Shown: positions 21,900 to 63,318 of the stretch, piece after piece | Layout: each line of letters begins with the position of its first letter | Numbering within the stretch: position 1 is the stretch's first letter | From: a virus | Virus record (IMG/VR): IMGVR_UViG_3300037246_001555 | Coordinates: 23,490-87,489 of that record | Strand: one strand, 5' to 3' | DNA: 64,000 nucleotides | Translations under genes and position numbers: made by a program | The notes under the pieces: model-generated | What the model was told of the DNA's origin: nothing | Database searches by the model: none | What the model saw: only the letters and a program-made list of their open reading frames with translations

Positions 21900-24800
21900 A
21901 TGCCCGAATTCGGTCTCGGAATTTACGACCCGGAGAGGGAAGCTCGTGCGCGTGAGACTGTTTACGGTGACAAGCCCCCCCGCCTCACTCCGGCTCCCCC
22001 CACCGGACCGCTCGCTAAGGCCTCCAAGAAGGACCGCGAGCACGCCGAGATGTCTACCCTCGCCCGAGGAATGATCTCCAAGCACGACGCCGCGACCCGA
22101 GAGCGCGAACTCATTCGTGATTCTAGCTATATGGCTACTGTCGGTCTGGGCACCGTCAACCCGAATGCGAATTACGAGTTCGAGCAGTCCCGCGATTCCG
22201 AGGCCGAATACCGCCGACAAGACTTCCGTCAGAACGACCCGCATGCCGCTTTCCTCCAGCCCGACAACTCGCTCATAGATCCTAATGAGGAGCCGGGAGA
22301 TTCTGGGAACGCCTTCCGTAGTACCTTGAATTTCATCTTCAGTGATGAGATGGGCATGCTAGGTATGAAGTGGGACGATGAGGCCTTCTCGTGGAACAAG
22401 GATAACTTCATCAATCAGATCACTGAGCACCCCTACTCGACAGCATTCACTCTAGCTAGCTATATCGTACCCGTCGGCCTCGCATGGCAGAAGGGGTCAC
22501 GAATTGCTCAGCGCGGGGCTAAACTTGCCGCGGCTACTGGTGCTGATGCCGCTGCTGTCACGGGTAGTGGGATTCTTGGCTCTAAGGTGGGCTGGCGCTT
22601 CGATGATCATGCCAAGCTTGTTCAGACACTTGCGAAGCCCGAAGCAAATGACGGCCGCCGATTCTTCAGTGATAGCACTGCTGACGCGCTAAAGAAGGCT
22701 ACCTCGCCTGACGAGATCAAGGACATCGTATCTCCTACTGAGCTGAACAAGATGCTGATCAACGACTGGCATCAGGAACGGTACTTCGAACTGCGTCAAC
22801 TTGCTAAGCAGGGCAAGCTGGAGACCATCCAGCAGAAGGCTGCTTGGACGATGTGGCGTCGCTTCGGTAACAAGTACTTTGAGAAGCTTCAGGACATCGA
22901 CAAGGTCATGATTCAGAGCATGGACGACTTCTTTGTGAAATCTCAGATCGGGAGATTCCTTGCTCAGGCGCCGGGCCGACTCGGAGAAGAGAGCAACCAG
23001 GCTATCTTTAAGTATTGGCAAGCCGGTACGGGCAATCGCAATACGGCTGAATTGGCAAAGAAGGTCGGTGCTGAGAATGCTGACTGGGCTGAGCGGATCG
23101 TAGGTAAGTGGGAGAATCTATTCGTTGAGCAATATGATGAGGGGTTCATCGACTACGCTACTGTGTCTATGTTCACAGATCCGGATAAGGTACCTGCGGG
23201 TTTCCATCTTCCTGCCATCCTAAAGGGTACGCCGGGGTTTGAGGAGCTAGGAGGTAAGTTTCTGACCGTGGAGGCTGGCTCTCAGTACGGCTCGCTCGTT
23301 GAGCGGAGAGGTCTGGACATAGGGAAGGCTCTGACCGGCCCCACCACTAAGCATCGCGGTAAGTTCACCACAAGCCAAGCAGTACTCGATAACTTGGATG
23401 AGTTGGAGACGAATCCTGCTAAGCTTACTATCGGGGGCTTCATTAAGGACAACATACTCTTTCAGATACACAGGAACTTCCGCGATATCATCGTGGATGC
23501 CACCGAAGGTAGTACTAGGTGGAGCCAAATGATAGCGTCGCGTGAGGCGTATGAGTCTATGCCTAAGTACGCTAAGCAGAATTGGATTAGTTTCGAAGAT
23601 CTTGACAGCGTGGTACCCGGACTCTCTGAACGCATGGAGCGTATGGTTCAATCCAAAGTCACTAAGGAGGGCCTCGACTCGGCCAAATATACTTCTATGC
23701 CTGTCATTGATCGGGAGGTTGTGAAGAAGTTTTTCGGGCGCGAGGGCTCCGCCAGACAGGTTGGAGGCACTTTCGGGAAGTTCTTTGAGCTGTTGACTGC
23801 TGTCCATAAGACGTCACGCACGGCGCTTAATGCTCCCACACATATGTCTAACATCACCGGTAATATGATGTTCCTGGCAATGGCGGGGATGAATCCATTC
23901 GGCAAGCAGGCGCTGAATGACGGTCGTATGTTTGCTAAGGCCTTCCATAGTCTTGCTAAGTCCGCAGGCAGTCGAGGCGAAGATACTATCGACTCTTTGA
24001 TGACCAAGGATAACCTTGCGAAGCTCTTTGGTGATGACCGATATGCGACTGACAAGCTGGGTAACAAGGTCGATTTTGCTGAGCTGTTCTCTGACTCTAT
24101 CATGAAGGATTTGACCGAAGCTCAAGCATTTGATGAGGTGGAAGGTCTGAAGAATGTTGATCGACTCCTCGCCCAGCTCGAAAGGCTGGAGACTGACGGT
24201 TGGGGCGACAAAGCTTTGGAAGCCACAGCTCGCGCCATTGCAGGCGTGGGTGAGGTTCCCGGAATCAAACAGACTTTGCATGCGGCGTCCTCGGCGTATT
24301 TGGCTGAGGACATGATTCCGAAGATGATGTATGCTGCGAATCTTGCTAGGAAGGGCTGGGGCAAGGACGCGATTATACGTGAAGTGGGCCGCCGCCTTCC
24401 TCAATACCGCACTGTAGGCTCCATGCAGCAGGCTGCACGCCGTGTTGTACTGCCTTGGATTACGTTCCCGGCTGAGGCCACTCGAATCATGAAGAACAAC
24501 ATGATGGACCGGCCCGTTCAGATGATGGCGTGGATGCAGGCCCCACAGATCGCGCAGAGTATAGTTAGCGGGTCAGGCCAGGGCCCGGACTTCAGTGAGT
24601 ACGAGGATGCGATTAACGCTGCCCCTCCCTGGGCTGTACGGTACCAAACAGTCATGGTGGACGGTAACGACGCCCCGGAGCTGTTGGGGGCTGTAGGAGG
24701 TGCTGGAGTCGCCGGTACGGTGGGTGCTGCGGTTGGCGGAGCCAGGGGTGCGGCTATTGGAGCTGTCGCTGGCGGTGTCGCAGGCGCAGCCCTCGGGGCG

Positions 24801-28500: not shown

Positions 28501-29195
28501 TACTTGCTCCCTTCTCTAAATCCTTGTTCGAACGCTTGTGCTCTTTTGAGGGCGTACTCTGGCGTCCTCGTAGCGTGTTTGAGCTTTGCTAGTGCTCCCT
28601 TATATCCCTTCCTGTACCTACGTCGTACCTTTCTAGCCCGACGAAGTGCCATGCCCCGCTTCAGGCTGGAAAGGCGGTCAATGAAGCAGAACCCCATCAG
28701 GTGATCCATTTCGTGCTGAATCACAATCGCCTCATAGCCTTCGAACCACTCGTGGTGTGCTTCACCTTCGAAATCCAACCACTCCAGCTCCAGCTTATCC
28801 AGCCGCCGTACGGGGTTCCGGTAACCGTAGGGGAAGGACAGGCAACCCTCGCCCGGCCACTGGAGCTGTTGGGCTCCCTGACCAATGTCAGTGATCCTCG
28901 GATTGAGAAACACGCGGGGCGTCTTTGAGGCGTCCTCTTCCGTCCACTTGGTATCCATGACAAAGATCTGGAAGGGGATGCCTGTTTGTTGTGCTGCAAG
29001 GCCGACACCGTGGTGCTTGTACATTGCCTGGATCATGGCTTCGGCCGTATCACGAACCAGCTCGGTGCCCAGGCCCTCCTCAGGGAATGGCGCAACCGGC
29101 ATCTTCAGGGTCTCGTCAGGCCAGATAACCAGCCTCAGCTCAGGCTTCTCTTCTTCCGCCTCAGGTGCGGGAGTGTTAGGGTCAGGTTCAGTCAT
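28500..29195 (-). CDS. def: Peptide deformylase
   Basis: GVGLAAQQ, EGCLS and QHEMDHL motifs. Confidence 0.95.
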   Translation of the reverse strand: MTEPDPNTPAPEAEEEKPELRLVIWPDETLKMPVAPFPEEGLGTELVRDTAEAMIQAMYKHHGVGLAAQQTGIPFQIFVMDTKWTEEDASKTPRVFLNPRITDIGQGAQQLQWPGEGCLSFPYGYRNPVRRLDKLELEWLDFEGEAHHEWFEGYEAIVIQHEMDHLMGFCFIDRLSSLKRGMALRRARKVRRRYRKGYKGALAKLKHATRTPEYALKRAQAFEQGFREGSK

Positions 29196-50968: not shown

Positions 50969-51738
50969 TTGCTTCCCTGTATATGCTTCCGCACGGCTTC
51001 GATGGCTTGGCGTATCTCAGCCATGTTAGTTCTGGCATTGTTATCCCAGCCGTCCACCACAGCCCGCAGCAACCGGCCGCGCTCGGCATTCTCGCGTAGG
51101 CACGTTGCCACGTAATCGAGCTGTGGTTTTGTCAAGTAGCCGCCAACCGTACCAGTCAGTTTGTGATTGTCGGGCCACCACTCCGGCAGCTCCCCCGCAG
51201 AGCCCACGTCTACCTCGTAGTTAGTGCCTGGGTTGACGCAGATCGGCGGCGACGGGTGTTTAGATCCCATCAACTTGGTAACGTCAAATCCCGTAGGCTT
51301 CAGAGGGCGCAGCCACACCCCAGCACTTTTGAATTGGGCGGCTGCTCGGTTCATTGAATCCTCCCAATCATCTCGATAGGAAAAGGGGTCCTCCTCTTTG
51401 CAAGGGATTACCACCTTGGTAATGCCTACTTGAATTAGCCGAGAAGTACAGCGGTCGCATGCCATACCAGATAGATAAATCTCGGTATCGTAGAGAGGTG
51501 TAAAGGAATTGAGGATGGCATTTTCCTCGCTGTGGATTACCCCGCTGTATTTTGCGTCCTTGTCCGCGTACCTCTCTGGCGAGTCGTCGGTGGCGGCGGC
51601 AAACCCGTTGAACCCCATTCCTAGCACCTTCTTGTGCCGGTCTACGATTACCGCCCCGCACTTGGTGCTGGGGTCTTTACTCCACTGCGCCACGTGGCGT
51701 GCTAGTTCTACAAATCTCACGTCCCACTTGTCGTTCAT
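50965..51738 (-). CDS. dCMP deaminase with a C-terminal extension
   Basis: WSKDPSTK.GAVI, G.NG, HSEENA, CDRC. Confidence 0.92.
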   Translation of the reverse strand: MNDKWDVRFVELARHVAQWSKDPSTKCGAVIVDRHKKVLGMGFNGFAAATDDSPERYADKDAKYSGVIHSEENAILNSFTPLYDTEIYLSGMACDRCTSRLIQVGITKVVIPCKEEDPFSYRDDWEDSMNRAAAQFKSAGVWLRPLKPTGFDVTKLMGSKHPSPPICVNPGTNYEVDVGSAGELPEWWPDNHKLTGTVGGYLTKPQLDYVATCLRENAERGRLLRAVVDGWDNNARTNMAEIRQAIEAVRKHIQGSK

Positions 51739-54443
51739 GCTGCCCTCTCTGCGTCCGTCCAGTTTTGTCCATAGCCGCAGTCAATCTTGAACACGGCGTT
51801 TCCAAGCTCAGGATACGGGGTTTGGGAGATAGCCTCTAGTGCCTTCATGAACCACTCCACGTGACTGTCCTTTACCTCATAGGCCACGGAGTCATGTACG
51901 GTGTTTACCAGGCAGACGACGTCCTCGCCTATATCGTACTCCGCAAGCATCTTGTCAATGACAATAATGGTCCGATTGGTGAGAGACGCCGCCACGCTCT
52001 GAATGAAGAAGTTGACGCATTCTCTCTCGGCCTTCCCCCTCTCCCACTCGTTAGGAGCGTTGAGGGACGTACCGAAGTGACGCTCTCTACCGAACACGTT
52101 CGTCGCGATACCGCCTTTCGCCCTCACGTTGTCCGGAGTGAGGTCAATGAATCGGCCTACTCCGGAGAACCTCTCCTTCCAAGAGGCCATCCCTGCGTTC
52201 AGCATGTCCCATGTGAAGTTTCTCTCGATGCCGTTGGCGTCGTACCACTTACCTGTCTTGACTAGAGAATACCCTTCCGATCCATAAGCGAGGCCGAAAT
52301 TGACTCGCTTGCCCACTTCGGTGCGATTGGCCTTGCTAACGTCCGACTCCTTCATATCCGCCCACTGAGTGCGAATGAACTCGAACGCCGTAGCCGTGTG
52401 TAGGTCCTGCTTCGGATCCGAAAGAATGTTCAACATCTCCAAGTCGTTAGCTTCAATTGCCATTATGCGCAGCTCTACTTGGGAGAAATCGCCGTAGACG
52501 TACTTGTAACCTTCTGGAGCGATGAACATATCCCGCATGACCAGCTTCTCGTCCTTTAGCCTCTGGGCGAACGGGACGTAGGCTTTCTTAGGTCCGTAGC
52601 AAACGATGGACTCATCAATCTTCGGGATCTGATGAAAGAACCGGCAAGACAGCCTACCCGTTACCGGGCCCGCAATCACCCAAGAATATCGTACCCTACC
52701 ATCAGAGTCGAGGTCCTCCTTGCAGTTCTCTAGGTAGGTGCTGATCATCTTAGTGCGATTCCGGTAGGTAATCATGTCTGCGGCAAAATCAGCCTGGGGC
52801 TGTTTGTTAGATTCAACTAAGTCATTCAACTTCTGCTTGTCGGTGGAGTAGCCCGAGGCGTTTCTGTTCTCCTCCAGTTCCACGTCCTTTACGCCCATAG
52901 TCAAGAGGGCAGCTAACACTTGGGTGTCGCTGTTGGGGTTGAAATCCGGCTTGGCTGAGGCCCCGCGCAAACGGGTCAACAGAGTCTTCTGCTCTCGGCT
53001 GAACCTGTCGTTTAGAAGGCCCATCGCCGTGGTGTGGACGAGCGCGCCCTTGTACTCAGCGCGGGCCAGGGATCTCTGGAGGGGCTCCGACTCTATGGTG
53101 TGGAAGTCCCACAGGTTCTGGTGCTGCTTTTTGAGTCGGTCAGCGTAGAGGCACGTCAGCCTGTAGGTTCCCAGGGCGTCAGTTGCCCCATAAGGCCACA
53201 GGATCGCATCCGGCACCTTGTCGTAGGACGCCTTCAGCTTCTTACCTGAGCCTGTGATAGCCCTCTTCTCGGCGGAGTAATCGCCCCATCCGAACTCCAG
53301 ATCACATAGGAACTCTAGCGTGGACGGGGGTACCTCATCCTGAAGGTGCTTCATCGTCCACGTGTCGTATAGGAAACCCTCGATGTTGACGCCGTAGCCC
53401 CACCGTAGCACGTTCACGTCAAACTTGTGGTTGTGGGCTGATTTAGCGATGTTGGGGGTCTTGAATACGTCCCGCATGAACTGGGTAACCAATTCATCAT
53501 TCTTGGCGCCAAACCCCTGCTTCAAGTGGAATTCCTGCTCCTCGGGGGCGTCGGGATCATGCAGCATGATAGGTAGCACAGCGCACTCGTCCCAGCCCCA
53601 GGCGAACTGGTAGCTGATCACGGGTGCCCTATGCAGGCTCAGTCCAGCGGATTCCGTATCCCACCCAAACATAGTCGAATTCAGTAATCTATCCTTCAGC
53701 CATTCCAGCTTCTCAGGTGAGTCGATAAGCTCCCAATCGGGGACGAAGTGGTCGCTAGCCTCCTTACCGTCCAACAGATCCTTAGCGACTAGATAGTCGT
53801 GTCCGATTCGGGCCTGAAGCTTCTTGTTGGGCCGGTAGAAGAAGGTGGCCGGATTGAGAGTAGGAACGACCTTGAAGGTTGGCCCGTCGTCCCACCCCGC
53901 GAACTTCTCCTCAAACACCCTCCCGTGAATGGAGTTGATGGAGCCGTTACCCATGAGGTTGAACGCGCGAAGCGAGGGAGCGCCAACGAGTATGACCACT
54001 TTGGGCTGGATCAACATGATCTCCTTACGGAGGTGCTCATCCCGGCACGTGTTGTACTCGGAAGTGGTGGGCTTGCGGCCTCTCACACGGGGCCTGCACT
54101 TGGCGAGCTTGGTCATCCAGACCCGGTCGAGGTTGTGCCCCGCCTTCTGGAGGAAGTTGACGACTTGAGCACCCGAATTGTCCGCCCAAACCATGTCGAG
54201 ACGGTCATCGTCCATTGCTGGCATATCGCCGATCACCATGAGGTCATACTGGCCCCCGCCCAAAGCCGGTACGGGGCTGAGGCACTTAGCCTCTGTCTGC
54301 TGCGTTTCAGCCACATGAGATGCTGGCTGCCCGCTGATCTGGACAGACGAGCACCCCATAGCGCCGAGCTTGCAAAGGAAATTGCCGTCTCGACAAGACA
54401 GGGTGGACATATCCACCACGGGAATGATCTGGGGTTGGGTCAT
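51735..54443 (-). CDS. polA: Family A DNA polymerase with N-terminal UDG family-4-like domain and 3'-5' exonuclease
   Basis: UDG-like (KCRP, EI..I.PKV.ILVG); exo DTE, HN.KFD, YGATD; pol TGRLS, DFSQVELR, K.VNFGLAYG, VHDS. Confidence 0.93.
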   Translation of the reverse strand: MTQPQIIPVVDMSTLSCRDGNFLCKLGAMGCSSVQISGQPASHVAETQQTEAKCLSPVPALGGGQYDLMVIGDMPAMDDDRLDMVWADNSGAQVVNFLQKAGHNLDRVWMTKLAKCRPRVRGRKPTTSEYNTCRDEHLRKEIMLIQPKVVILVGAPSLRAFNLMGNGSINSIHGRVFEEKFAGWDDGPTFKVVPTLNPATFFYRPNKKLQARIGHDYLVAKDLLDGKEASDHFVPDWELIDSPEKLEWLKDRLLNSTMFGWDTESAGLSLHRAPVISYQFAWGWDECAVLPIMLHDPDAPEEQEFHLKQGFGAKNDELVTQFMRDVFKTPNIAKSAHNHKFDVNVLRWGYGVNIEGFLYDTWTMKHLQDEVPPSTLEFLCDLEFGWGDYSAEKRAITGSGKKLKASYDKVPDAILWPYGATDALGTYRLTCLYADRLKKQHQNLWDFHTIESEPLQRSLARAEYKGALVHTTAMGLLNDRFSREQKTLLTRLRGASAKPDFNPNSDTQVLAALLTMGVKDVELEENRNASGYSTDKQKLNDLVESNKQPQADFAADMITYRNRTKMISTYLENCKEDLDSDGRVRYSWVIAGPVTGRLSCRFFHQIPKIDESIVCYGPKKAYVPFAQRLKDEKLVMRDMFIAPEGYKYVYGDFSQVELRIMAIEANDLEMLNILSDPKQDLHTATAFEFIRTQWADMKESDVSKANRTEVGKRVNFGLAYGSEGYSLVKTGKWYDANGIERNFTWDMLNAGMASWKERFSGVGRFIDLTPDNVRAKGGIATNVFGRERHFGTSLNAPNEWERGKAERECVNFFIQSVAASLTNRTIIVIDKMLAEYDIGEDVVCLVNTVHDSVAYEVKDSHVEWFMKALEAISQTPYPELGNAVFKIDCGYGQNWTDAERAA

Positions 54444-54646
54444 GAATACGTCTTACCTGTCCACCCGCCGCCCTTCAAAGTGAAAGAACCTCCGGGAGCT
54501 ATGAGCCTAATTATCTCGCCGTCACAGGCCTCTCCGTGACCGCCGAACTTCATGTGCTTCTGATGCGTGCGAGCGTCTTCCTTGATGTTGTGCTCAATGT
54601 CCAGCTCCCGCAAGCACTCCTTACATTGGTATAGGTATTGGGGCAT
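54440..54646 (-). CDS. FmdB-family zinc-ribbon protein
   Basis: MP.Y.Y.C..C...R.I.....F.LKG.GW. Confidence 0.8.
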   Translation of the reverse strand: MPQYLYQCKECLRELDIEHNIKEDARTHQKHMKFGGHGEACDGEIIRLIAPGGSFTLKGGGWTGKTYS

Positions 54647-54647
54647 A

Positions 54648-54776
54648 TTACCGCAGCCGCCGCGCGTTCACACCGTTAGCGATGTGCTTGAGTTGCTCGT
54701 GGATATCCTTGAACAAAGCAAACCACTGTTCCTCGCTGGGCGGGACCAGCGGCTTGTCTTGGGCATTCGGTTCCAT
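54648..54776 (-). CDS. Small protein (42 aa, not in ORF track)
   Basis: Hand-translated MEPNAQDKPLVPPSEEQWFALFKDIHEQLKHIANGVNARRLR; AGGAG RBS. Confidence 0.55.
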   Translation of the reverse strand: MEPNAQDKPLVPPSEEQWFALFKDIHEQLKHIANGVNARRLR

Positions 54777-54784
54777 AGTTTCTC

Positions 54785-54805
54785 CTCTAGTAAATAATGC
54801 CGTTT
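54785..54805 (-). promoter_or_regulatory. Conserved promoter-like motif, copy 6, overlapping the primase 3' end
   Basis: AAACGGCATTATTTACTAGAG on minus; also encodes NGIIY-stop. Confidence 0.7.
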
Positions 54806-56030: not shown

Positions 56031-57452
56031 TCACGGCTTATTCTTCACTTGGTGCTGGCCCATAATCTTCTTCTTACCCTTAGGCTGCACGTCATCCGTA
56101 TCGGCGTCCTCGATCTCCTTGATGCCCTCAATCTCCTTGTCCGAGATGTGCATCCTAGAGAGGTCACATTCCATGACCATCTTCCGGCCCTCCATTGCCC
56201 CATGACGTGATTTCAATTCCGCGAACTCTAGTCCAATCTTCGGCTGGCCGGTAGCGTCGGTTACCTTCACTCGTTTGACTGCCACTAGCAAAGCGGCCTC
56301 CTGAAGGTGCTGAATCGAGCCCTGGGCTGAATCCATGCCTAGCTCCGCCTTGGCCCGCATGCCAGAACGGTTAGTCTGGATCGCGGTCCAGATCGAACAG
56401 TTGCGCCTCTTAGCCAACCACACCAGCTCCTTCGCTATCTGACCGTAGTACGTCCATGTGGCCCCCTTGTCCATTCGGATCACGGTGCTCATACGTTCTA
56501 TGTAATCTATCACCACCATATCAGGCCAAACGCCGTGCTCGTTCCTAACCCTCTTCATCACGTCCTCTACACCCTCGACCGTCTGACCGAGGTTAGCAGA
56601 GTAGATGAACAAACGCTTGCTAAGCATAGCCTGATAGCCCTGTAGCTTTTTGTATGCTTTGCTGGGCTCGTCTTGAATCTCGTTCATCGAGACGAACGAG
56701 AGTTCCCCCGTGACCGGGTCAACGGCGGGTTGTTGCATCCTGACAGCGAATCGTTCCGTTTGCTCGTTGGTGGTCATCTCGTTCGTGATGAACAGCACCG
56801 TTTGGTCTTCAATAGCCGCCGCATGGAAGGCGACGTTCATCAAACAGGCCGACTTACCGTGGCCGCTAGGCGCCATGATAATACCCATCTGAGGAGAGCG
56901 CAACCCCCCAGACCAAAGGTCGATGGGCTTCAGCCCCGTGCCGATCTTTGGCCTCTTGCCCTTCCACGGATGGTCGTCCACCATCTTGTCGAACGCCTCT
57001 TGGATGCTGAACAGCCCCTCATCATCCGATTCAGTGTGCTGAGCTAGCCAGGTTGACAGCTCCCCCTTCAGCGCGTCGGCTTGTCCGTTAGTGAGCATCT
57101 TCTGGAACCGCTGCTCGTGGATCAGATAGTGCAGTGACATGGCGGCTGCCGCTTCTTTAGCTTTGGCTACATTGTAACGTTGTGTGGCTGTATCGTATCC
57201 CTTGAGCTGTTCAATCGTTGTACGCCACCTCGCGTTGAACTTCTCCTTATCGCGCTCTTCCATGAACTGAGATAACGAGGGGATGCTGGGTGTGGTCGCT
57301 TGGCTGTCCATGTAATCAAACACGGCCTTGAGCACCGGCTTCAACTCAGCGTCCTTCAGCCAGTCAGGATTGAACACCTTCTTGACGTCGTGGGCGTCCT
57401 GCTCCCTAGAGCATAGAGCGGACACCATTGCGTACTCATTGAACTTCAGCAA
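56031..57452 (-). CDS. dnaB: Replicative DnaB-like helicase
   Basis: TG...D..SGG, APSGHGKS, IT.EM, VIDY, WTAIQ.NR, KSRHG. Confidence 0.92.
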   Translation of the reverse strand: MLKFNEYAMVSALCSREQDAHDVKKVFNPDWLKDAELKPVLKAVFDYMDSQATTPSIPSLSQFMEERDKEKFNARWRTTIEQLKGYDTATQRYNVAKAKEAAAAMSLHYLIHEQRFQKMLTNGQADALKGELSTWLAQHTESDDEGLFSIQEAFDKMVDDHPWKGKRPKIGTGLKPIDLWSGGLRSPQMGIIMAPSGHGKSACLMNVAFHAAAIEDQTVLFITNEMTTNEQTERFAVRMQQPAVDPVTGELSFVSMNEIQDEPSKAYKKLQGYQAMLSKRLFIYSANLGQTVEGVEDVMKRVRNEHGVWPDMVVIDYIERMSTVIRMDKGATWTYYGQIAKELVWLAKRRNCSIWTAIQTNRSGMRAKAELGMDSAQGSIQHLQEAALLVAVKRVKVTDATGQPKIGLEFAELKSRHGAMEGRKMVMECDLSRMHISDKEIEGIKEIEDADTDDVQPKGKKKIMGQHQVKNKP

Positions 57453-57697
57453 CTACTTCTCCTGTTCCATTTTTCAATGGCCCGCCGCTCACACCACATC
57501 TCGATGCTGTGTAGTGTATCAGGGATTCCTTTAGGATGCCTATCTGGGCTGGCTACTACAATCCTTCCTCCACACCCGCTTTCTTTTTCAAAGTCAAAGC
57601 ACCAAACTGCGCTAGTCATGAATCTATGCGGACCTACATAGGGGTTAGATTGGCCGCAGAACGGGCAGGGCTTCGGCTTCTGTCGTCGTTCACTCAT
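57446..57697 (-). CDS. Lar-like zinc-ribbon protein
   Basis: KPCPFCG...C...CG...AIEKWNRR. Confidence 0.75.
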   Translation of the reverse strand: MSERRQKPKPCPFCGQSNPYVGPHRFMTSAVWCFDFEKESGCGGRIVVASPDRHPKGIPDTLHSIEMWCERRAIEKWNRRSSC

Positions 57698-57947
57698 CTA
57701 CGTACCTAGCCAGACAGACGGTAATGAAAGTTTGAGCGCCCTGTATGAAGATCTCCACTTCTCGTTTGTTTTTAGACGCGAAACAAGCCCACCCGTCGTG
57801 ACGCTCTAGGCCCGGCCCTCTAACATCCCAATCTCCTTCATCGTCCCAATATGATCCCATCTCCCCGCTATACACCATATGAGTGGGCTCTTCTGTGCAC
57901 AAGCCTCCTCCGATATTTACCTTGGCCGCCCACAACTTCTTACCCAT
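57690..57947 (-). CDS. Hypothetical protein
   Basis: Coupled ORF. Confidence 0.5.
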   Translation of the reverse strand: MGKKLWAAKVNIGGGLCTEEPTHMVYSGEMGSYWDDEGDWDVRGPGLERHDGWACFASKNKREVEIFIQGAQTFITVCLARYVDE

Positions 57948-59466
57948 GAATCACCTCGAACTCCTGTTCTCTGTACACCGCTTCCCGTGCTTTGGAGTGC
58001 TTCTCCAACATAGTGTGGTGCGCGTCATAAAAGTCCACGATCTCCGCCACGCTCTTACCGCCAGCCTTACGCAGGGCCCGACCTACTCGTTGAATGGTCT
58101 TCACTTGCGACTTGCCGCCCGAAGCCAAGATCACCTTCCGTAGCTCCGGAACGTCTACCCCCTCATCGAAAATGGTCGTCGCTATGACAGCTTGAACAGA
58201 GCCGTCTCTCAACTGCCCAATCGCAGCACGTCGATCCTTAGCCGAGTCCCTTCCAGACAGAAATAATATGTCGTGACCCACTATCCTCTTGTGGGCGTCC
58301 TTGATGAAGTGGGCCTGCTCGATGGTCTTTACCAAGATCAACATAGGGTACGGCCCCTTAGCCACCTCATCTACGATCATATTGGTGCGGATCTCGTTGA
58401 ACTTGATTCCCTTCTCCTCAACCTTACGCCAGTACTCAGCCCGCGACTTGCTGGAGCGGGAGCCCTTCCAGTCCAGCGTCACAGCTATGGTGCCCTTGAC
58501 GCGCTTCATGACGACCCTGGGAGGGGTTAGATAGCCTAGGTCAATCAACTCCTTAGAGCTGATACGATATAACGCTTGACCTGTTACCGCCTCTAACAGC
58601 ATATTGTCGTACTGCGTCCTCATGAACGGCGTGGCTGTCAAGCCCCAGCGGTAGGGTACGTCAATGAAGTCGGAGACCTTGACGAACTGATTACCCCTGT
58701 CCATATTGGAAGCCATGAGGTGGCACTCATCAAAGAACGTCTGCTTGGTGCTGGACATGTAGGAGCTTAGTTTGTTTAGCCTATCGAGGTCCGCGGCTGA
58801 CGCTTCTAGCGCGCCGTCTCCATGCGCCTGTAAGATCCTATGAAAGGTTTGCATGGTGGCAACGGTGATGCCCTTATGGGGCTCAAACTTCCCGTCGCCT
58901 ATAACACCTACGGTGTGACCGTACTGCTCAAAGCGCTCCTTTGCTTGGATCAACAGATCCTTCCGATGAACAAGGAAGACGGTAGGCACGCGGTTCATCT
59001 CGTACATTGCGACCGCTATCTCGGTCTTGCCTGCGCCAGTAGCCAGAGCGAGCACGCCCCGAGGCCACCACCCGAACTCATTCTGGTTTCCAAAGGCGGC
59101 CTTTACCGCCTCGAATTGGTAGTCCCGCAATTTCACCTGTGTGGTCGTTAGGCTGGCCGAACGAGTCAGCGCCCGCGAGTCTAGGCCTACTTGCCAAGTC
59201 ACCCCACCTAAGTTCAATAGAGAGATGAGTCTCGGGACAAGGCCGCTGCGGATCTGAACACCCGCGTGTTGCTTGGTGGTAGGATCAATGTAGTCCTCCC
59301 ATAGCCGGGCTTTGCCGTCCCAAGCACCAGACTTGAACGAGTACAGGTACTCCGCCCCGGGCACCTCTACCTTCAAGCCCCGGTCCAGTATGTTCTTTAG
59401 CGGGCTGGCTCCCGCGTTGTCGTAGCGACACAGTGTCCATACGTTGTCAGGCTCAATGGTTATCAT
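57940..59466 (-). CDS. SF2 DEAD/DEAH helicase (UvsW-like)
   Basis: WDGK, LRDYQ, ATGAGKT, DECH, LTATP, EGVDVP, QRVGR.LR. Confidence 0.92.
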   Translation of the reverse strand: MITIEPDNVWTLCRYDNAGASPLKNILDRGLKVEVPGAEYLYSFKSGAWDGKARLWEDYIDPTTKQHAGVQIRSGLVPRLISLLNLGGVTWQVGLDSRALTRSASLTTTQVKLRDYQFEAVKAAFGNQNEFGWWPRGVLALATGAGKTEIAVAMYEMNRVPTVFLVHRKDLLIQAKERFEQYGHTVGVIGDGKFEPHKGITVATMQTFHRILQAHGDGALEASAADLDRLNKLSSYMSSTKQTFFDECHLMASNMDRGNQFVKVSDFIDVPYRWGLTATPFMRTQYDNMLLEAVTGQALYRISSKELIDLGYLTPPRVVMKRVKGTIAVTLDWKGSRSSKSRAEYWRKVEEKGIKFNEIRTNMIVDEVAKGPYPMLILVKTIEQAHFIKDAHKRIVGHDILFLSGRDSAKDRRAAIGQLRDGSVQAVIATTIFDEGVDVPELRKVILASGGKSQVKTIQRVGRALRKAGGKSVAEIVDFYDAHHTMLEKHSKAREAVYREQEFEVIHG

Positions 59467-59630
59467 GAAACTCCAAACTCAGTTAGAGGGAACATTGCTA
59501 ACCCCGTGCCGCAGCACGACCCGCAAAGGCCTCTGTACTCTATACCGTGGTCACTGTCCCTCCTCACAGGAGGCCAGTCTCGTCCTGAGCCGTTGCATTT
59601 GAAGCACAGTGCATCACTAAACTTCCTCAT
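59463..59630 (-). CDS. Zinc-finger microprotein, TEF family copy 5 (55 aa, not in ORF track)
   Basis: MRKFSDALCFKCNGSGRDWPPVRRDSDHGIEYRGLCGSCCGTGLAMFPLTEFGVS; ATGA overlap with the helicase. Confidence 0.8.
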   Translation of the reverse strand: MRKFSDALCFKCNGSGRDWPPVRRDSDHGIEYRGLCGSCCGTGLAMFPLTEFGVS

Positions 59631-59798
59631 CTAGCCAAACTCCGTGATAGCAATGGGCACTATCGACGTGCCATGACAGGCTTTACAACGGATGAGTCTA
59701 CGGGTGTCGCGGCTCCGTACTTCCGCCCACGTGGCACCGTCAGCCCATACCGTTCCCGTACCAATGCAAGAGTTGCAAATGAGATCAAGGTTGTTCAT
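59631..59798 (-). CDS. Zinc-finger microprotein, TEF family copy 4 (55 aa, not in ORF track)
   Basis: MNNLDLICNSCIGTGTVWADGATWAEVRSRDTRRLIRCKACHGTSIVPIAITEFG. Confidence 0.8.
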   Translation of the reverse strand: MNNLDLICNSCIGTGTVWADGATWAEVRSRDTRRLIRCKACHGTSIVPIAITEFG

Positions 59799-59804
59799 CT
59801 ATAT

Positions 59805-59987
59805 CTAACCAAACTCCGTGATAGCAATCGGCGTTATCGTCGTGCCGTGACAGGCTTCACACCGCACCGTGGGGGGCTCGCGCATACTGGCCCACCTATT
59901 CTTGTACCGCCATACCAACTCGCCCCTCAGACAAGTGTGACATACTAGATCTCGCCAACCTTTTGCAAAGCCCTCATTCGCCTCCAT
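59805..59987 (-). CDS. Zinc-finger microprotein, TEF family copy 3 (60 aa)
   Basis: MEANEGFAKGWRDLVCHTCLRG...RCEACHGTTITPIAITEFG. Confidence 0.8.
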   Translation of the reverse strand: MEANEGFAKGWRDLVCHTCLRGELVWRYKNRWASMREPPTVRCEACHGTTITPIAITEFG

Positions 59988-60255
59988 CCTCCTGCTCCTC
60001 CACCCGTAGTCGTTGTAGCCCCTTGATCGCCATACCAAAGGACCAGATGTTCAATAGGTTGTATGACCAGAGCCCCCAATATTGAGGGTCGTTCACCGAA
60101 ATGGTTACATTGATCAAAGTGTTAGCCACAGCCATGAGCAACATCAACCAGTAGACGGGCTTCAACGTGCCTTGAGCGACCCACCAATTCCTAGCAACGC
60201 CGCTAATGAGTACGAACGTCGCAGCCATGTTCACGATCCACGCCTCAGGGCTCAT
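59974..60255 (-). CDS. Small 3-TM membrane protein
   Basis: Start MSPEAW with GGAG RBS; three hydrophobic segments. Confidence 0.6.
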   Translation of the reverse strand: MSPEAWIVNMAATFVLISGVARNWWVAQGTLKPVYWLMLLMAVANTLINVTISVNDPQYWGLWSYNLLNIWSFGMAIKGLQRLRVEEQEDGGE

Positions 60256-60400
60256 CGTAGAACTCCGTAAGGGGAAACGGTTCCAGCCCGGTTGAGCAAC
60301 AACTTTTACACTCCCCACACCTACCCACCGCCGGAGCGATTATGCTGGTCCACCCGACAGAACCGCAGGCGTAGCACATATAGTGCTCATGATAGTCCAT
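60245..60400 (-). CDS. Zinc-finger microprotein, TEF family copy 2 (51 aa, not in ORF track)
   Basis: MDYHEHYMCYACGSVGWTSIIAPAVGRCGECKSCCSTGLEPFPLTEFYDEP. Confidence 0.8.
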   Translation of the reverse strand: MDYHEHYMCYACGSVGWTSIIAPAVGRCGECKSCCSTGLEPFPLTEFYDEP

Positions 60401-60530
60401 CGTAAAACTCCGTCAGAGGAATAGGCTCTCGAAAAGTCTCTGCGCAGGGGTTACAGTATTTATTGAACCCGTTTCTCAGACAGGCTTGACACGCTATGAT
60501 CCATAAGCTTAGTTGAGGGTCAGGGATCAC
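60387..60530 (-). CDS. Zinc-finger microprotein, TEF family copy 1 (47 aa, not in ORF track)
   Basis: (M)IPDPQLSLWIIACQACLRNGFNKYCNPCAETFREPIPLTEFYDGLS; GTGA overlap and AAGGAG RBS. Confidence 0.75.
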   Translation of the reverse strand: MIPDPQLSLWIIACQACLRNGFNKYCNPCAETFREPIPLTEFYDGLS

Positions 60531-61180
60531 AAAATCTCCTTGGTCCACGTACCCCAGCAAATAGCGTGGTCCTTCACGCTCAGTTCACTTCGTGTGACCT
60601 CAATCGCCGCCGCCACTCCTTGGTGCTCAATGATCCTAGCGATACGGTAGAGTCGAAGCCCGTGCTCCCACCAATGCACCATCACCACTCGCTCGGTCAT
60701 GACGGACAAGTCTCGCGTCTCACGAAGCCTAGGGTCCAACGTCTTCTGATCAATGACGGGGTAGTCGGTCGTCTCGATTACCAGATTGAACTTACCTGCC
60801 GCGGCTTGCATGGCGGCGCTGTCCGCGCCGTGGGGCGTCACCCACCTGATGGGGAGAACCCCTAGGTTCTTCTTGAACCAGACCATCGACTTATCCAAGT
60901 GCTCTTCCACCTCAGCTTGTGAGCGAGGGGCGTAGGGCCCATGATCCCAGCCGTGCAGGTCCGGGTAGATGACCTCCTCCTCGGTCATTTCCCTTAGCAG
61001 CTTGATCCCGTCGGGGAACTCTTCGATATCTTGACACAGGATAGCCGGAGTTAACAGCACCCCTGTATTGACGCACCAGTTGACGTTCTTGAAGAACTTC
61101 TGAACCTCTTTCCCGCGCAGCTTGGGATCACTGGAGTTGGTGATGGCGTCATCGAATCTGATTCTAGTGGGTCTGATCAT
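60527..61180 (-). CDS. Polysaccharide deacetylase-like (CE4/NodB fold)
   Basis: RFDD, LHGWDH, VTPHG, MVHWWE. Confidence 0.7.
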   Translation of the reverse strand: MIRPTRIRFDDAITNSSDPKLRGKEVQKFFKNVNWCVNTGVLLTPAILCQDIEEFPDGIKLLREMTEEEVIYPDLHGWDHGPYAPRSQAEVEEHLDKSMVWFKKNLGVLPIRWVTPHGADSAAMQAAAGKFNLVIETTDYPVIDQKTLDPRLRETRDLSVMTERVVMVHWWEHGLRLYRIARIIEHQGVAAAIEVTRSELSVKDHAICWGTWTKEIL

Positions 61181-61185
61181 AGCGC

Positions 61186-61428
61186 TTACTTCTTATCGCC
61201 TCTTACGTCGTAGTCCTTGATGAACATGTAACGCCCTCGCATCTCGACCACGTCGTTGATGTTCTCCCGAAGAACCTTCAACTCCTCGATCTTGAAGGGG
61301 CCCGCCAGCTTACCTGAAACAGACAGAAGGAACTCTCGGGTCTCAGTGTTGAAGGACACCACGGTATTGCCGTTGTGGTCGTCTCGTACCGCCACGGGCA
61401 TGAAGCCCTCGGTTAGGTTGTCTATCAT
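61186..61428 (-). CDS. Hypothetical protein
   Basis: Coupled ORF with GGAGG RBS. Confidence 0.5.
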   Translation of the reverse strand: MIDNLTEGFMPVAVRDDHNGNTVVSFNTETREFLLSVSGKLAGPFKIEELKVLRENINDVVEMRGRYMFIKDYDVRGDKK

Positions 61429-61686: not shown

Positions 61687-61944
61687 TTAGATGGACACTA
61701 GGCCTAGCGTGAAAATTCTCACGATGGCCTTAGCTGTCCCGTTAATGATGGCTTCCCAACCCGAGAAGGCATCTGTTTCAAGATAGGTGCACCGCTCCAC
61801 CGTACCGTCCTCGCGGAAGGTACAGTCCTCCACCGAGGCAATCCCCAGCGTGCTGTACTGTGCCCCGTCCGGAAGCCTGACCATAGCACACCCTGAGAGC
61901 AGTAGGCAGGCTACGATTACACAGATGAGCTGTCGGGTGTTCAT
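61687..61944 (-). CDS. Putative lipoprotein
   Basis: Lipobox LLSG-C after a hydrophobic signal. Confidence 0.65.
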   Translation of the reverse strand: MNTRQLICVIVACLLLSGCAMVRLPDGAQYSTLGIASVEDCTFREDGTVERCTYLETDAFSGWEAIINGTAKAIVRIFTLGLVSI

Positions 61945-62405
61945 GTCTTCTCCTCAAACGAGATGTGCGCCCATGTTCTACCTCTATACGCCTTACTGGC
62001 CGTAGTGCGATCTACCCCAACCATTTCGCCTATCTCCCCCCAAGTTAGACCTTTTTCCCGTAACTTGCGAATGTTCACTACTTTCTTCTCTGTCAGTTTA
62101 GATAGTCCTTGTAGCTCCCCTCGCGCTATTCTACCCTTCTCACGGCAGTCGTGAATGTTGTCTCTGTACGTGCCTACAAAAAGGTGTTTCGGGTTAACGC
62201 ATTTTCGGTTATCACAAGTATGACAGATCAGGAGCCCATAAGGAATTGGTCGTTCGTGCGTCAACTCCCAAGAGGCTCTGTGCGCCCGAACATTTTTTCC
62301 GTTGAGCCAGAAGCAGCCGTAACCATCGGGCCAAACGTAAGCAGTCCAAACCCAGCATAAGTCCGGATCATCCATTTTGTCCACCTTACTCCAGAATCTA
62401 AACAA
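61941..62405 (-). CDS. HNH homing endonuclease with C-terminal HTH
   Basis: RFWSKVDK..CW.W, AHR.SW, CH.CDN..CVNP.HL; probable TTG start at 62405 (track ORF begins at 62549). Confidence 0.88.
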   Translation of the reverse strand: MFRFWSKVDKMDDPDLCWVWTAYVWPDGYGCFWLNGKNVRAHRASWELTHERPIPYGLLICHTCDNRKCVNPKHLFVGTYRDNIHDCREKGRIARGELQGLSKLTEKKVVNIRKLREKGLTWGEIGEMVGVDRTTASKAYRGRTWAHISFEEKT

Positions 62406-63318
62406 TTCCTCGCGCCTCTCTCGCCCATTCCAAGTAATCCTCCCAACGCCAGCCCCTAAGGAACTCAGTCGCTGATCGGTACCCGCTGTGGTACAGCTCT
62501 TCCTTCTGCGCGGCAGTGATGCCGAAGTCGGTAGCCTTGGTGTCACCAACGGGCACCATGATTGTTCGGTGCTGTAGGTCCCCCGGACGGATGAACCGCT
62601 TATCGTGAGCCTCCAGCCCTGTCTGTATGATGGCCTGTAGGAAGTCCAGATTGCTGTCGATCTTCCGTGCCCTACCCGACCCGCTCTCCGACAGATTGAT
62701 GCCGAAGGTGGGGTGGTTGGGGGTCCGGTTAGAGTCGAACTGCCAGATTGGGAAGTTACTCAATAGGCCTCCGTCTACGAAGTAGCTACCTCCCATCCGG
62801 ATAGGCCAGAAGAAATATGGGATACTCATGCTAGTTCTGACAGCCCACGCTACCTCAAGAAAGTCCGGGTCAAGCCCATACAACTTGGCGTCGTCCGGCC
62901 ATGTGACTAGCGTGCCCCGGGTGATATCCGCAGCGAACACCCTCAGCTTGTACCGCCTCTTCGGCTCAGCCCCGTCCACCTTCAGATCACCAAAGGTCAG
63001 CAGTCCCTTGTCCCTCATGAAACCTTGCATCATACGGTAGAAGGTGTCTCCGCGATAGATGCCCTTCTTCCGCAGCAGGTTCGGAATCTTACGGCCGAAC
63101 CCCGCGCCGTCCTTGAAGGACTCGAAGTTCACGTCATTTAGGATCATGTGCATCTCATCCGGGGTGTAACCGCTTGCGTACATGGAAGCCACGATGGCCC
63201 CAGCCGACGTACCGGCTATGCAGGCAGGTTCGAACCCTTGTTGTTCAATTGCCGCTACGGCTCCGACGAGACCGGGTACCTTGACCCCGCCTCCCTCTAG
63301 TACTAGATCGTAGTTCAT
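62398..63318 (-). CDS. Patatin-like phospholipase
   Basis: EGGGVK, GTSAG, SMSIP, DGG. Confidence 0.92.
   Translation of the reverse strand: MNYDLVLEGGGVKVPGLVGAVAAIEQQGFEPACIAGTSAGAIVASMYASGYTPDEMHMILNDVNFESFKDGAGFGRKIPNLLRKKGIYRGDTFYRMMQGFMRDKGLLTFGDLKVDGAEPKRRYKLRVFAADITRGTLVTWPDDAKLYGLDPDFLEVAWAVRTSMSIPYFFWPIRMGGSYFVDGGLLSNFPIWQFDSNRTPNHPTFGINLSESGSGRARKIDSNLDFLQAIIQTGLEAHDKRFIRPGDLQHRTIMVPVGDTKATDFGITAAQKEELYHSGYRSATEFLRGWRWEDYLEWAREARGIV

Follow-up and report, generated by a model that had tools for sequence, protein, structure and literature searches.

What are the five small, closely packed genes that lie immediately upstream of an SF2 helicase gene in a phage genome, and why do their products all end in nearly the same way? 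The locus belongs to IMG/VR virus record IMGVR_UViG_3300037246_001555, which is linear, 87,489 bp long and 73% complete by CheckV. The window analyzed here is the 64,000-nucleotide (nt) stretch from positions 23,490 to 87,489 of that record, and coordinates given without a locus label are positions in this window. Of the sequencing runs, the one that best contains this stretch is a marine-sediment metagenome, possibly its source; all three runs listed consist of marine-sediment DNA contigs, and no RNA run was among them. Five minus-strand genes encoding 47-60 amino acids (aa) run head to tail across 60530-59463, with one 93-aa hydrophobic open reading frame (ORF) among them. The comparisons described below tentatively favor the following answer: the genes would encode a rare, undescribed, lineage-specific and tandemly duplicated family of ~50-60-residue zinc-ribbon microproteins, each with a single zinc (Cys4) site and each a binder with a shared module. 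In this proposal, every microprotein would combine two parts: a constant module, made of the second zinc knuckle (knuckle 2) and a gap-free, proline-rich tail; and a variable module, made of the N-terminus and the hairpin of 8-31 residues between the knuckles. The genes of the locus, in order of transcription, are:

60527..61180, minus strand: CE4 (polysaccharide deacetylase)-like gene, which precedes the array; a backbone gene with a weak Pfam Polysacc_deac_1 match
60387..60530, minus strand: copy 1, 47 aa; GTG start 5 nt after AAGGAG; knuckles CQAC and CNPC with an 8-aa loop; tail EPIPLTEFYDGLS; family profile 43.1 bits
60245..60400, minus strand: copy 2, 51 aa; knuckles CYAC and CKSC; tail EPFPLTEFYDEP; profile 55.5 bits
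59974..60255, minus strand: 93-aa hydrophobic protein outside the microprotein family; conserved backbone gene, normally directly before the SF2 helicase
59805..59987, minus strand: copy 3, 60 aa; knuckles CHTC and CEAC; tail TPIAITEFG; profile 63 bits
59631..59798, minus strand: copy 4, 55 aa; tail VPIAITEFG; closest paralogue, copy 3; profile 57.7 bits
59463..59630, minus strand: copy 5, 55 aa; both knuckles perfect CxxCxGxG; tail MFPLTEFGVS; profile 63.4 bits
57940..59466, minus strand: SF2 (UvsW-like) helicase, the next gene of the operon; Pfam ResIII and Helicase_C, phrog_16

An earlier note, made from the DNA alone, had reported five such ORFs between 59463 and 60530. All five were found where that note had placed them, and the tails EPIPLTEFY, EPFPLTEFY, TPIAITEFG, VPIAITEFG and MFPLTEFG are as it had read them. 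Copies 1 and 3 are also present in the protein collection, as P0003 and P0002. Each copy contains two CxxC knuckles followed by [LI]TEF and 1-5 terminal residues; the knuckles had been described as often CxxCxGxG, a form that is perfect in only three of the ten. At least two CxxC motifs together with TEF in the last 12 residues occur in five ORFs of the entire 87,489-bp record, all of them array copies. A strict tail pattern matches the record four times, always within the array, as compared to a mean of 0.0 over twenty shuffles; a relaxed pattern matches six times, five of them within the array (mean over twenty shuffles, 0.45). The family profile detects the five copies at 43-63 bits and one further match at 14.7 bits (28969-29055), which contains an internal TGA, lies out of frame within def and was set aside as chance.

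The reach of the family was assessed by scoring 1.84 billion representative proteins, at E ≤ 0.001, with a profile built from the five copies. This search for homologues, proposed in the earlier note, identified 24 proteins: three from the window; 11 small metagenome proteins from outside it; and 10 unrelated Cys-rich proteins. The last group consists of DnaJ-class proteins, a single repeat protein, and CxxCH-rich repeat proteins that resemble multihaem cytochromes. The 11 outside homologues all bear the tail (for example LPIPLTEFY, HPMPLTEFY, VPIPLTEV or EPIPITEFY); they are 53-92 aa in length, share the architecture of the window copies and continue for 12-27 residues beyond the tail. All 11 sit in clusters of one or two members with no informative name, which suggests that the microprotein family is rare. 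For P0010 and P0016 the longest contig is 8118 bases in each case, and the two may be neighbors. Word-index protein searches returned only proteins that were already known, and a DNA search with 57900-61200 gave no match in 50,697 phage records.

A second array was located with a degenerate DNA pattern that spans knuckle 2 and the tail, run over 241 million metagenome records. One of the three loci that it selected is a true family locus, on a 112-kb contig (PJEL010000060.1, here L002). Eight consecutive plus-strand small ORFs with the family motif occupy L002:5654-7507, and the array reaches the end of the sequence examined, so that it holds at least eight; tandem arrays, which the earlier note had proposed to seek, therefore occur elsewhere. 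Because the pattern selected only one of these eight ORFs, the remaining seven represent an unbiased sample of the family. All seven contain hydrophobic-P-x-x-E-hydrophobic, in six of them at the same distance from knuckle 2. The seventh, at L002:7012-7284, places the tail after a Cys-free, repeat-rich N-terminus. Several of the L002 copies have lost the first CxxC and kept knuckle 2 and the tail. The other two metagenome loci were rejected as chance, as were all four loci that the pattern selected in a genome contig collection; at least four of these six (L001, L004, L005 and L007) share one long reading frame, found in L001 to run antisense to an ABC-type ATPase gene. Two degenerate tail patterns gave no matches in the viral contig collection.

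Alignment of 27 sequences identifies the constant part. Both Cys of knuckle 2 and the Glu of the tail are invariant (27/27). Three further residues are nearly invariant: the second Cys in knuckle 1, the Thr within G-T-G and one Pro. The resulting signature is C-x2-C-x2-T-x5-P-x2-E-hydrophobic, or in fuller form C-x2-C-x-G-T-G-x2-P-hydrophobic-P-hydrophobic-x-E-hydrophobic. While the loop between the knuckles ranges from 8 to 31 residues, the distance from knuckle 2 to the Glu is without insertion or deletion in 23 of 24 members. This fixed distance suggests that the tail acts as part of the domain and not as a tag on a flexible linker. The earlier description of a constant tail with a variable middle holds for a constant C-terminal element; TEF as the conserved unit does not survive, as relatives read GEL, REF, VEI, EEI, NEI or SEL at this position.

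Comparison with related phages places the array in its genomic context. Relatives were found in IMG/VR by means of the window's family-A DNA polymerase, to which the polymerases of G001, G002 and G003 are 71%, 62% and 57% identical; the SF2 helicase, the five-copy alignment and DnaB, used as queries to the viral contig collection, gave no relatives. The number of family copies is five in the window phage, at least five in G001, zero in G002 and one in G003, at differing gene junctions, and the copy-number variation anticipated earlier is thus present. In G002 and G003 the gene order is: an 80-aa gene; the CE4-like gene; an HNH gene (G003 only); the membrane protein that corresponds to the 93-aa ORF; the SF2 helicase; a DnaB-like helicase; primase; and polymerase. 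The G002 products are 55% (CE4-like), 30% (membrane protein, E 4e-14) and 45% (SF2 helicase) identical to those of the window. The interval between the CE4-like gene and the helicase of G002 is filled wholly by the membrane gene (L019:2781-3101), and the family profile has no match over the 40-kb record of this phage. In G003, the single family member precedes the CE4-like gene, with the helicase directly adjoined by the membrane gene. A counterpart of the membrane gene is located at L020:1960-2241 in a relative. G001 carries four ATGA-coupled copies directly before its primase, one of them cut by the contig end, and a fifth copy between an HNH gene and def, a junction at which the window holds no copy. 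The tails are subtyped by array, with T-E-F in 5/5 window copies and P/E-C-P in 4/4 array copies of G001. In IMGVR_UViG_3300037246_000359 (L013:2-577 and L015:1486-1641), a Cys stands between the two tail prolines of every array copy and constitutes a fifth conserved Cys, which may act as an additional ligand or in a disulfide.

The membrane gene had previously been described as embedded in the array. It stays beside the helicase even in relatives that lack copies at that site, which identifies it instead as conserved backbone, and the five microprotein genes therefore represent inserts on both sides of it. The three transmembrane segments first attributed to its product are plausible and not established: one exceeds the classic Kyte-Doolittle threshold and two are weaker. 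No Pfam or PHROG family matches this protein, and a homologue search returned only the protein itself, the G002 and L020 counterparts aside. As counts and junctions vary among the relatives and the membrane gene belongs to the backbone, the copies are best interpreted as accessory inserts of fast turnover that are not tied to the helicase. The array does run straight into the SF2 helicase gene, as originally observed, with an ATGA overlap between the stop of copy 5 and the helicase start. A conserved pairing of the two was considered and rejected: relatives carry copies at other junctions, and the nearest helicases of cultured phages (two, at 33% and 30% identity) have no such genes alongside.

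Sequence divergence between the copies is uneven along their length. The 3' ends of copies 3 and 4 are identical at 52 of 60 nt, as reported, and form a 62-nt module of 87% identity. The loops of these two copies had been called unrelated, which is not the case: the proteins are identical at 26 of 52 positions, and both loops contain V-W-x5-W-A-x-[MV]-R. Between copies 3 and 4 the synonymous divergence (dS) is 0.38 in the last 20 codons and ~2.4, which is saturated, elsewhere; the ratio of nonsynonymous to synonymous divergence (dN/dS) is ~0.3. Copy 1 has its first knuckle in common with copy 3 and its tail in common with copy 2. Unequal recombination in the 62-nt module would yield a gene with the head of copy 3 and the tail of copy 4, making this an expected product. 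Such a gene was encountered in run X3, a set of marine-sediment DNA contigs with 80-95% likeness to the window, in which the evidence consists of single short contigs. Here, one in-frame gene joins the copy-3 head to the copy-4 tail, with copy 5 directly after it, where the window has two genes. The joint skips 186 nt, with 9 nt between head and tail, and is a weak observation from one 151-nt contig of depth 2. Another X3 contig covers the end of copy 2 and, by hand translation, retains F-P-L-T-E-F with three synonymous changes, while the six preceding residues differ. In a related sediment contig, the copy-4 tail shows two listed changes, both synonymous, and the neighboring gene shows six, every one at a third codon position. 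The comparative evidence demonstrates that these are five real genes, paralogous to one another and subject to purifying selection.

The copies reach the threshold of no Pfam, PHROG, NCBIfam or PADLOC family (PADLOC, 0 of 10 proteins), in keeping with the earlier impression that this is not a described system. Below threshold, DnaJ_CXXCXGXG (PF00684) matches 9 of 21 family members at E ≤ 0.05 (best, 1.5e-5) and, among the five copies, copy 4 alone (17.4 bits against a cut-off of 32.7). Anti-TRAP is matched by 3/21 members in Pfam and 5/10 in NCBIfam, and two "Q-like" PHROGs by 8/21 and 6/21. As phrog_6060 (8/21 members) is also matched by 13 of 14 control genomes, it is generic and reports DnaJ-type knuckles only. 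Among solved structures compared by sequence, C2H2 fingers, lambda Q, DnaJ and Anti-TRAP are the best matches, none beyond E 2e-4.

The Cys-rich domain of DnaJ has the same type of knuckle as the microproteins and differs in having four CxxCxGxG repeats and two zinc centers, as compared to two knuckles and one zinc center. A J domain (PF00226) was not found in the phage record. A J-domain protein of 316 aa from a single 1217-bp contig, P0012, has repeats of knuckle, loop, knuckle and GTGL-x-PIPV-x-IP (C..C.GTGL.PIPV.IP from the second knuckle on). Each repeat has the architecture of one microprotein and lacks the [LI]-[TS]-E-hydrophobic end, and P0012 possibly reflects a cellular or viral source of the microprotein module. 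This correspondence suggests that the zinc part is an ordinary DnaJ-type single ribbon. What is specific to the family, judging from the alignment, is the rigidly spaced tail that ends in an invariant Glu and a hydrophobic residue. Anti-TRAP, which binds TRAP as a trimer or dodecamer, works by binding and blocking another protein. This Bacillus protein (RtpA; PF15777, NF058604, PDB 2bx9/3lcz) resembles the microproteins as a free-standing chain of ~53 residues with DnaJ-type CxxCxGxG knuckles. The scores remain far from the cut-offs, at 17.3 bits against 32 for copy 4 and at 15-17 bits against 65 in 5 of 10 proteins, with PDB E-values of 0.018-0.21; moreover, Anti-TRAP is a cellular regulator, whereas the microproteins are a multi-copy phage family.

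Lambda Q (PF03589, phrog_127, phrog_6060; PDB 4mo1 and 7ubm) ranks with the best sequence matches in the PDB (E 0.001-0.003), and hhalign aligns the family with its residues 113-161 at 56% probability. The zinc-ribbon arm of Q (residues 114-152) has two CxxCxGxG knuckles ~20 residues apart and a hydrophobic-Pro pair at the same spacing, and the segment that re-enters the body after the arm aligns with the conserved tail of the microproteins. In Q, the ribbon is inserted in a helix-turn-helix body, whereas the microproteins stand alone at 47-60 aa, and the likeness is too weak to claim homology. According to PMC9388147, the Q arm contacts DNA in the major groove and the zinc-binding domain of the RNA polymerase beta' subunit.

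Expansion of a small zinc ribbon has a precedent in Bacillus phage G, for which a passage of Iyer et al. (2021, Viruses 13:63, PMC7824862) describes a lineage-specific expansion of ~35 copies and proposes transcription-factor or DNA-binding roles. In both cases one small zinc ribbon, with no function assigned, has multiplied in one phage lineage, and here too its number differs from that of relatives (five, as compared to at least five, zero and one). The differences are: ~35 copies in a jumbo phage as compared to five in an 87-kb phage record; and the gap-free Pro-x-Pro-x-x-Glu tail, of which the phage G passage makes no mention. A tblastn search with P0010 and copy 2 against the 50,697 phage records (E ≤ 1) gave a weak Q-like match or nothing, and no match in phage G, whose presence among these records is unchecked. 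A counter-defense precedent of the same size and predicted domain type is Enki of Vibrio phage 1.080.O. This 52-aa protein, a predicted zinc ribbon, blocks the AbiH and Retron defenses (bioRxiv 10.1101/2024.06.14.598830). Enki is a phage protein with a demonstrated role and is encoded by a single gene; the analogy is functional only and was drawn from its description. Within the open-access literature, no description of the tail or the family was found, and small zinc-ribbon expansions in phages appear in print, in the text available there, only as the remark on phage G.

How might such proteins function? In the favored reading, the copies are accessory cassettes placed at junctions of conserved replication genes, with rapid gain, loss and recombination for which the conserved 3' module is the substrate. 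Each copy would then be a small binding module for host takeover or counter-defense. The variable hairpin would set the target, and the constant knuckle-plus-tail unit would make a contact common to all copies, either with one shared partner or with each other. We infer this binder role because the pattern of gain and loss is typical, because net charge is spread from -7 to +9 across 21 members, 11 of which are net acidic, and because the lambda Q arm and Enki offer precedents. Consistent with the tail being a contact are: its presence on a protein that is otherwise Cys-free; the L002 copies that keep it with knuckle 2 in the absence of knuckle 1; the invariant Glu; and the array-specific subtypes. 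Several points weigh against this interpretation. The profile that retrieved the 11 outside homologues itself includes the tail, so that the presence of the tail in them is partly ascertainment, and only the L002 neighbors and the copies of the relatives are free of this bias. The gap-free spacing fits a purely structural strand equally well, and common descent or gene conversion alone could have produced the array-specific subtypes. The count of zero in G002 comes from a 40-kb fragment that is 34% complete by CheckV, although the syntenic interval itself is complete. Finally, no candidate partner emerged. A more specific and rather doubtful form of the proposal has the tail unit as a lineage-specific plug, by which the zinc-ribbon heads of a small, quickly reshuffled library in each phage would dock through the Pro-x-Pro-x-x-Glu strand on a single hub partner. 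Co-evolution of this partner with the tail would account for both T-E-F in all five window copies and Pro-Cys-Pro in all four G001 array copies.

The principal alternative, possible and still on the unlikely side, is that the tail serves purely as a structural strap, a final strand by which the zinc ribbon is closed; the copies would share a fold and no common partner, and each would act through its own surface. Lambda Q has the same G-x-G-x3-hydrophobic-P spacing at the point, residue 152, at which its arm gives way to the body. This fits a strap, as do the equally spaced P0012 repeat units within their larger fold and the constant knuckle 2-to-Glu distance in 23/24 members. Less easily accommodated are the tail behind the Cys-free N-terminus of L002:7012-7284 and the L002 copies that retain knuckle 2 and the tail without the first CxxC, and a strap predicts neither an invariant Glu nor tail residues that are specific to each array. 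It is improbable that the copies are sequence-specific or structural binders of nucleic acid, whether as transcription factors or as readers of origins or priming sites, in the manner of the lambda Q arm or a primase zinc-binding domain. A uniform role of this kind is at odds with the spread of net charge, and a core role in replication or transcription with copy numbers of 0 to at least 5 among relatives. The location of the genes within replication modules is consistent with such a role, and the hhalign and PDB matches to Q, the major-groove contact of its arm (PMC9388147) and the roles proposed for the phage G ribbons (PMC7824862) point the same way; the Q-like PHROG, however, is the one that also matches 13/14 control genomes. 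Spare primase zinc-binding domains were rejected as an explanation, since the primase has its own C-x2-C...C-H-x3-C motif.

The remaining alternatives concern the tail codons and known peptide motifs. The T-E codons are ACGGAG in copies 1-4 and ACT GAG in copy 5, and the suggestion that they double as a Shine-Dalgarno sequence in several copies is correct: the ACGGAG of copy 1 lies 7 nt ahead of the copy 2 start, that of copy 2 lies 7 nt ahead of the membrane gene start, and that of copy 4 lies 9 nt ahead of the copy 5 start. If the shared tail were a nucleotide constraint, with codons that carry the Shine-Dalgarno sequence and start of the next gene in a coupled operon, the low dS between copies 3 and 4 over their final 20 codons would follow. 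This is very unlikely, and as a sole cause it is already contradicted. Copy 5 keeps the residues with other codons, and copy 3 has its GGAG 15 nt away from the start that follows. Outside the window, GGAG is found at the x-Glu codons of just 1/8 L002 copies and 2/4 G001 array copies; the Glu codons of L002 are GAG in five and GAA in three, and GAA is used in 4/12 copies of the two arrays combined. In addition, the L002 motif lies 2-38 residues before the stop, and the outside homologues extend well past it. As GGAG is present in one of eight L002 copies, the overlap is real in the window and yet not the reason for conservation. The earlier note had allowed that homologues might keep only GGAG and not the residues; the reverse is observed, with the Glu invariant in 27/27 and GGAG mostly absent at L002, which agrees with its argument for protein-level selection on the tail. 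The same note had likened the tail to PIP-box and beta-clamp motifs. In the clamp-binding consensus, position 1 is Gln and positions 4 and 5 are hydrophobic. Although the tails are hydrophobic with an aromatic residue, they read P/A-L/I-T-E-F, with Gln in none of them and Glu, not Leu, at position 4. The QLSLW of copy 1 does exist and resembles QL[SD]LF; it adjoins knuckle 1, at the position of the N-terminal strand of the other copies, and in an X3 contig over the copy 1 start its Gln codon is missing and the sequence reads LSFRV (hand translation; one contig, depth 7.9). No beta-clamp gene (DNA_pol3_beta, PF00712) was found in the record, which is 73% complete, and the polymerase is of family A. 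Docking of the tails on a sliding clamp is accordingly most unlikely. Least credible is the possibility that the genes encode precursors of ribosomally synthesized and post-translationally modified peptides (RiPPs), with Cys-rich cores and a shared recognition sequence. Tandem short Cys-rich peptides with one constant and one variable part are reminiscent of such precursors, but the Cys pattern is that of a classic paired-knuckle zinc ribbon, the neighbors are replication genes, and no radical SAM gene was found in the record, in a search confined to radical SAM among RiPP enzymes.

Most of the host-takeover and counter-defense functions known from phages reside in small proteins, which largely escape gene callers and family databases. 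The present array offers a testable case, with a constant module that contains an invariant Glu, variable heads and a backbone that exposes the inserts. Its comparative picture is clear, with the copies seen as mobile inserts, and it supplies natural variants in the form of copy-number differences and a head-tail recombinant. If the tail is a common docking element, it would provide both a handle for recovery of the partner and a sequence rule by which such libraries could be recognized in other phages; if docking on a single hub applies, the array would be one case of a general, undescribed "tagged microprotein arsenal" strategy that recurs, with differing tags, in many uncultured phages. If the tail is purely structural, the family would be one more zinc-ribbon expansion.

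The genes of the array are tightly packed. The start of copy 1 and the stop of the CE4-like gene overlap as GTGA. Copy 2 overlaps copy 1 by 14 nt, the membrane gene overlaps copy 2 by 11 nt, and copy 3 overlaps the membrane gene by 14 nt; copies 3 and 4 are 6 nt apart and copies 4 and 5 directly adjacent (0 nt). In the favored reading, the copies may be co-transcribed and translationally coupled with the phage replication genes, an arrangement suggested, with some reserve, by this layout. Scans of the stretch for promoters and terminators found no excess over shuffles. Copies 3, 4 and 5 are in a single frame separated by TAG codons (TAG ATA TAG after copy 3, a single TAG after copy 4). A read-through polyprotein was considered and rejected: a contig from a relative spans the copy 4/copy 5 stop with no change listed there, and TAG terminates 25 of 78 large ORFs in the record, which makes tandem duplication in frame, and not recoding, the likely origin of this arrangement.

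Other small zinc-type proteins occur nearby. The operon that contains the array also encodes, between the two helicase genes (57446-57697), an 83-aa CxxC protein of a different small zinc type, with a match to Lar-like restriction alleviation PHROGs (E 4e-6). Two relatives (L013:2476-2682 and L019:8660-8923) encode a small FmdB-like CxxC protein directly before the polymerase, where the window has a 344-nt gap (54444-54786). In the relatives, two Cys-rich small proteins unrelated to the microproteins are encoded in the same replication module, a 101-aa DnaJ-like one (L020:177-482) and a 51-aa one with nine Cys (L019:5945-6100). Small zinc-type inserts of several families thus seem to collect in this module.

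The family-A DNA polymerase of the window (51735-54443) has an N-terminal domain of the uracil-DNA-glycosylase superfamily (Pfam UDG, E 7e-17), and this fusion is retained in the orthologues of the relatives (57-71% identity). Upstream of the array, an HNH endonuclease ORF with a TTG start (61941-62549) overlaps a patatin-like phospholipase gene (62398-63318) by ~150 nt, and the endonuclease probably starts further in than listed.

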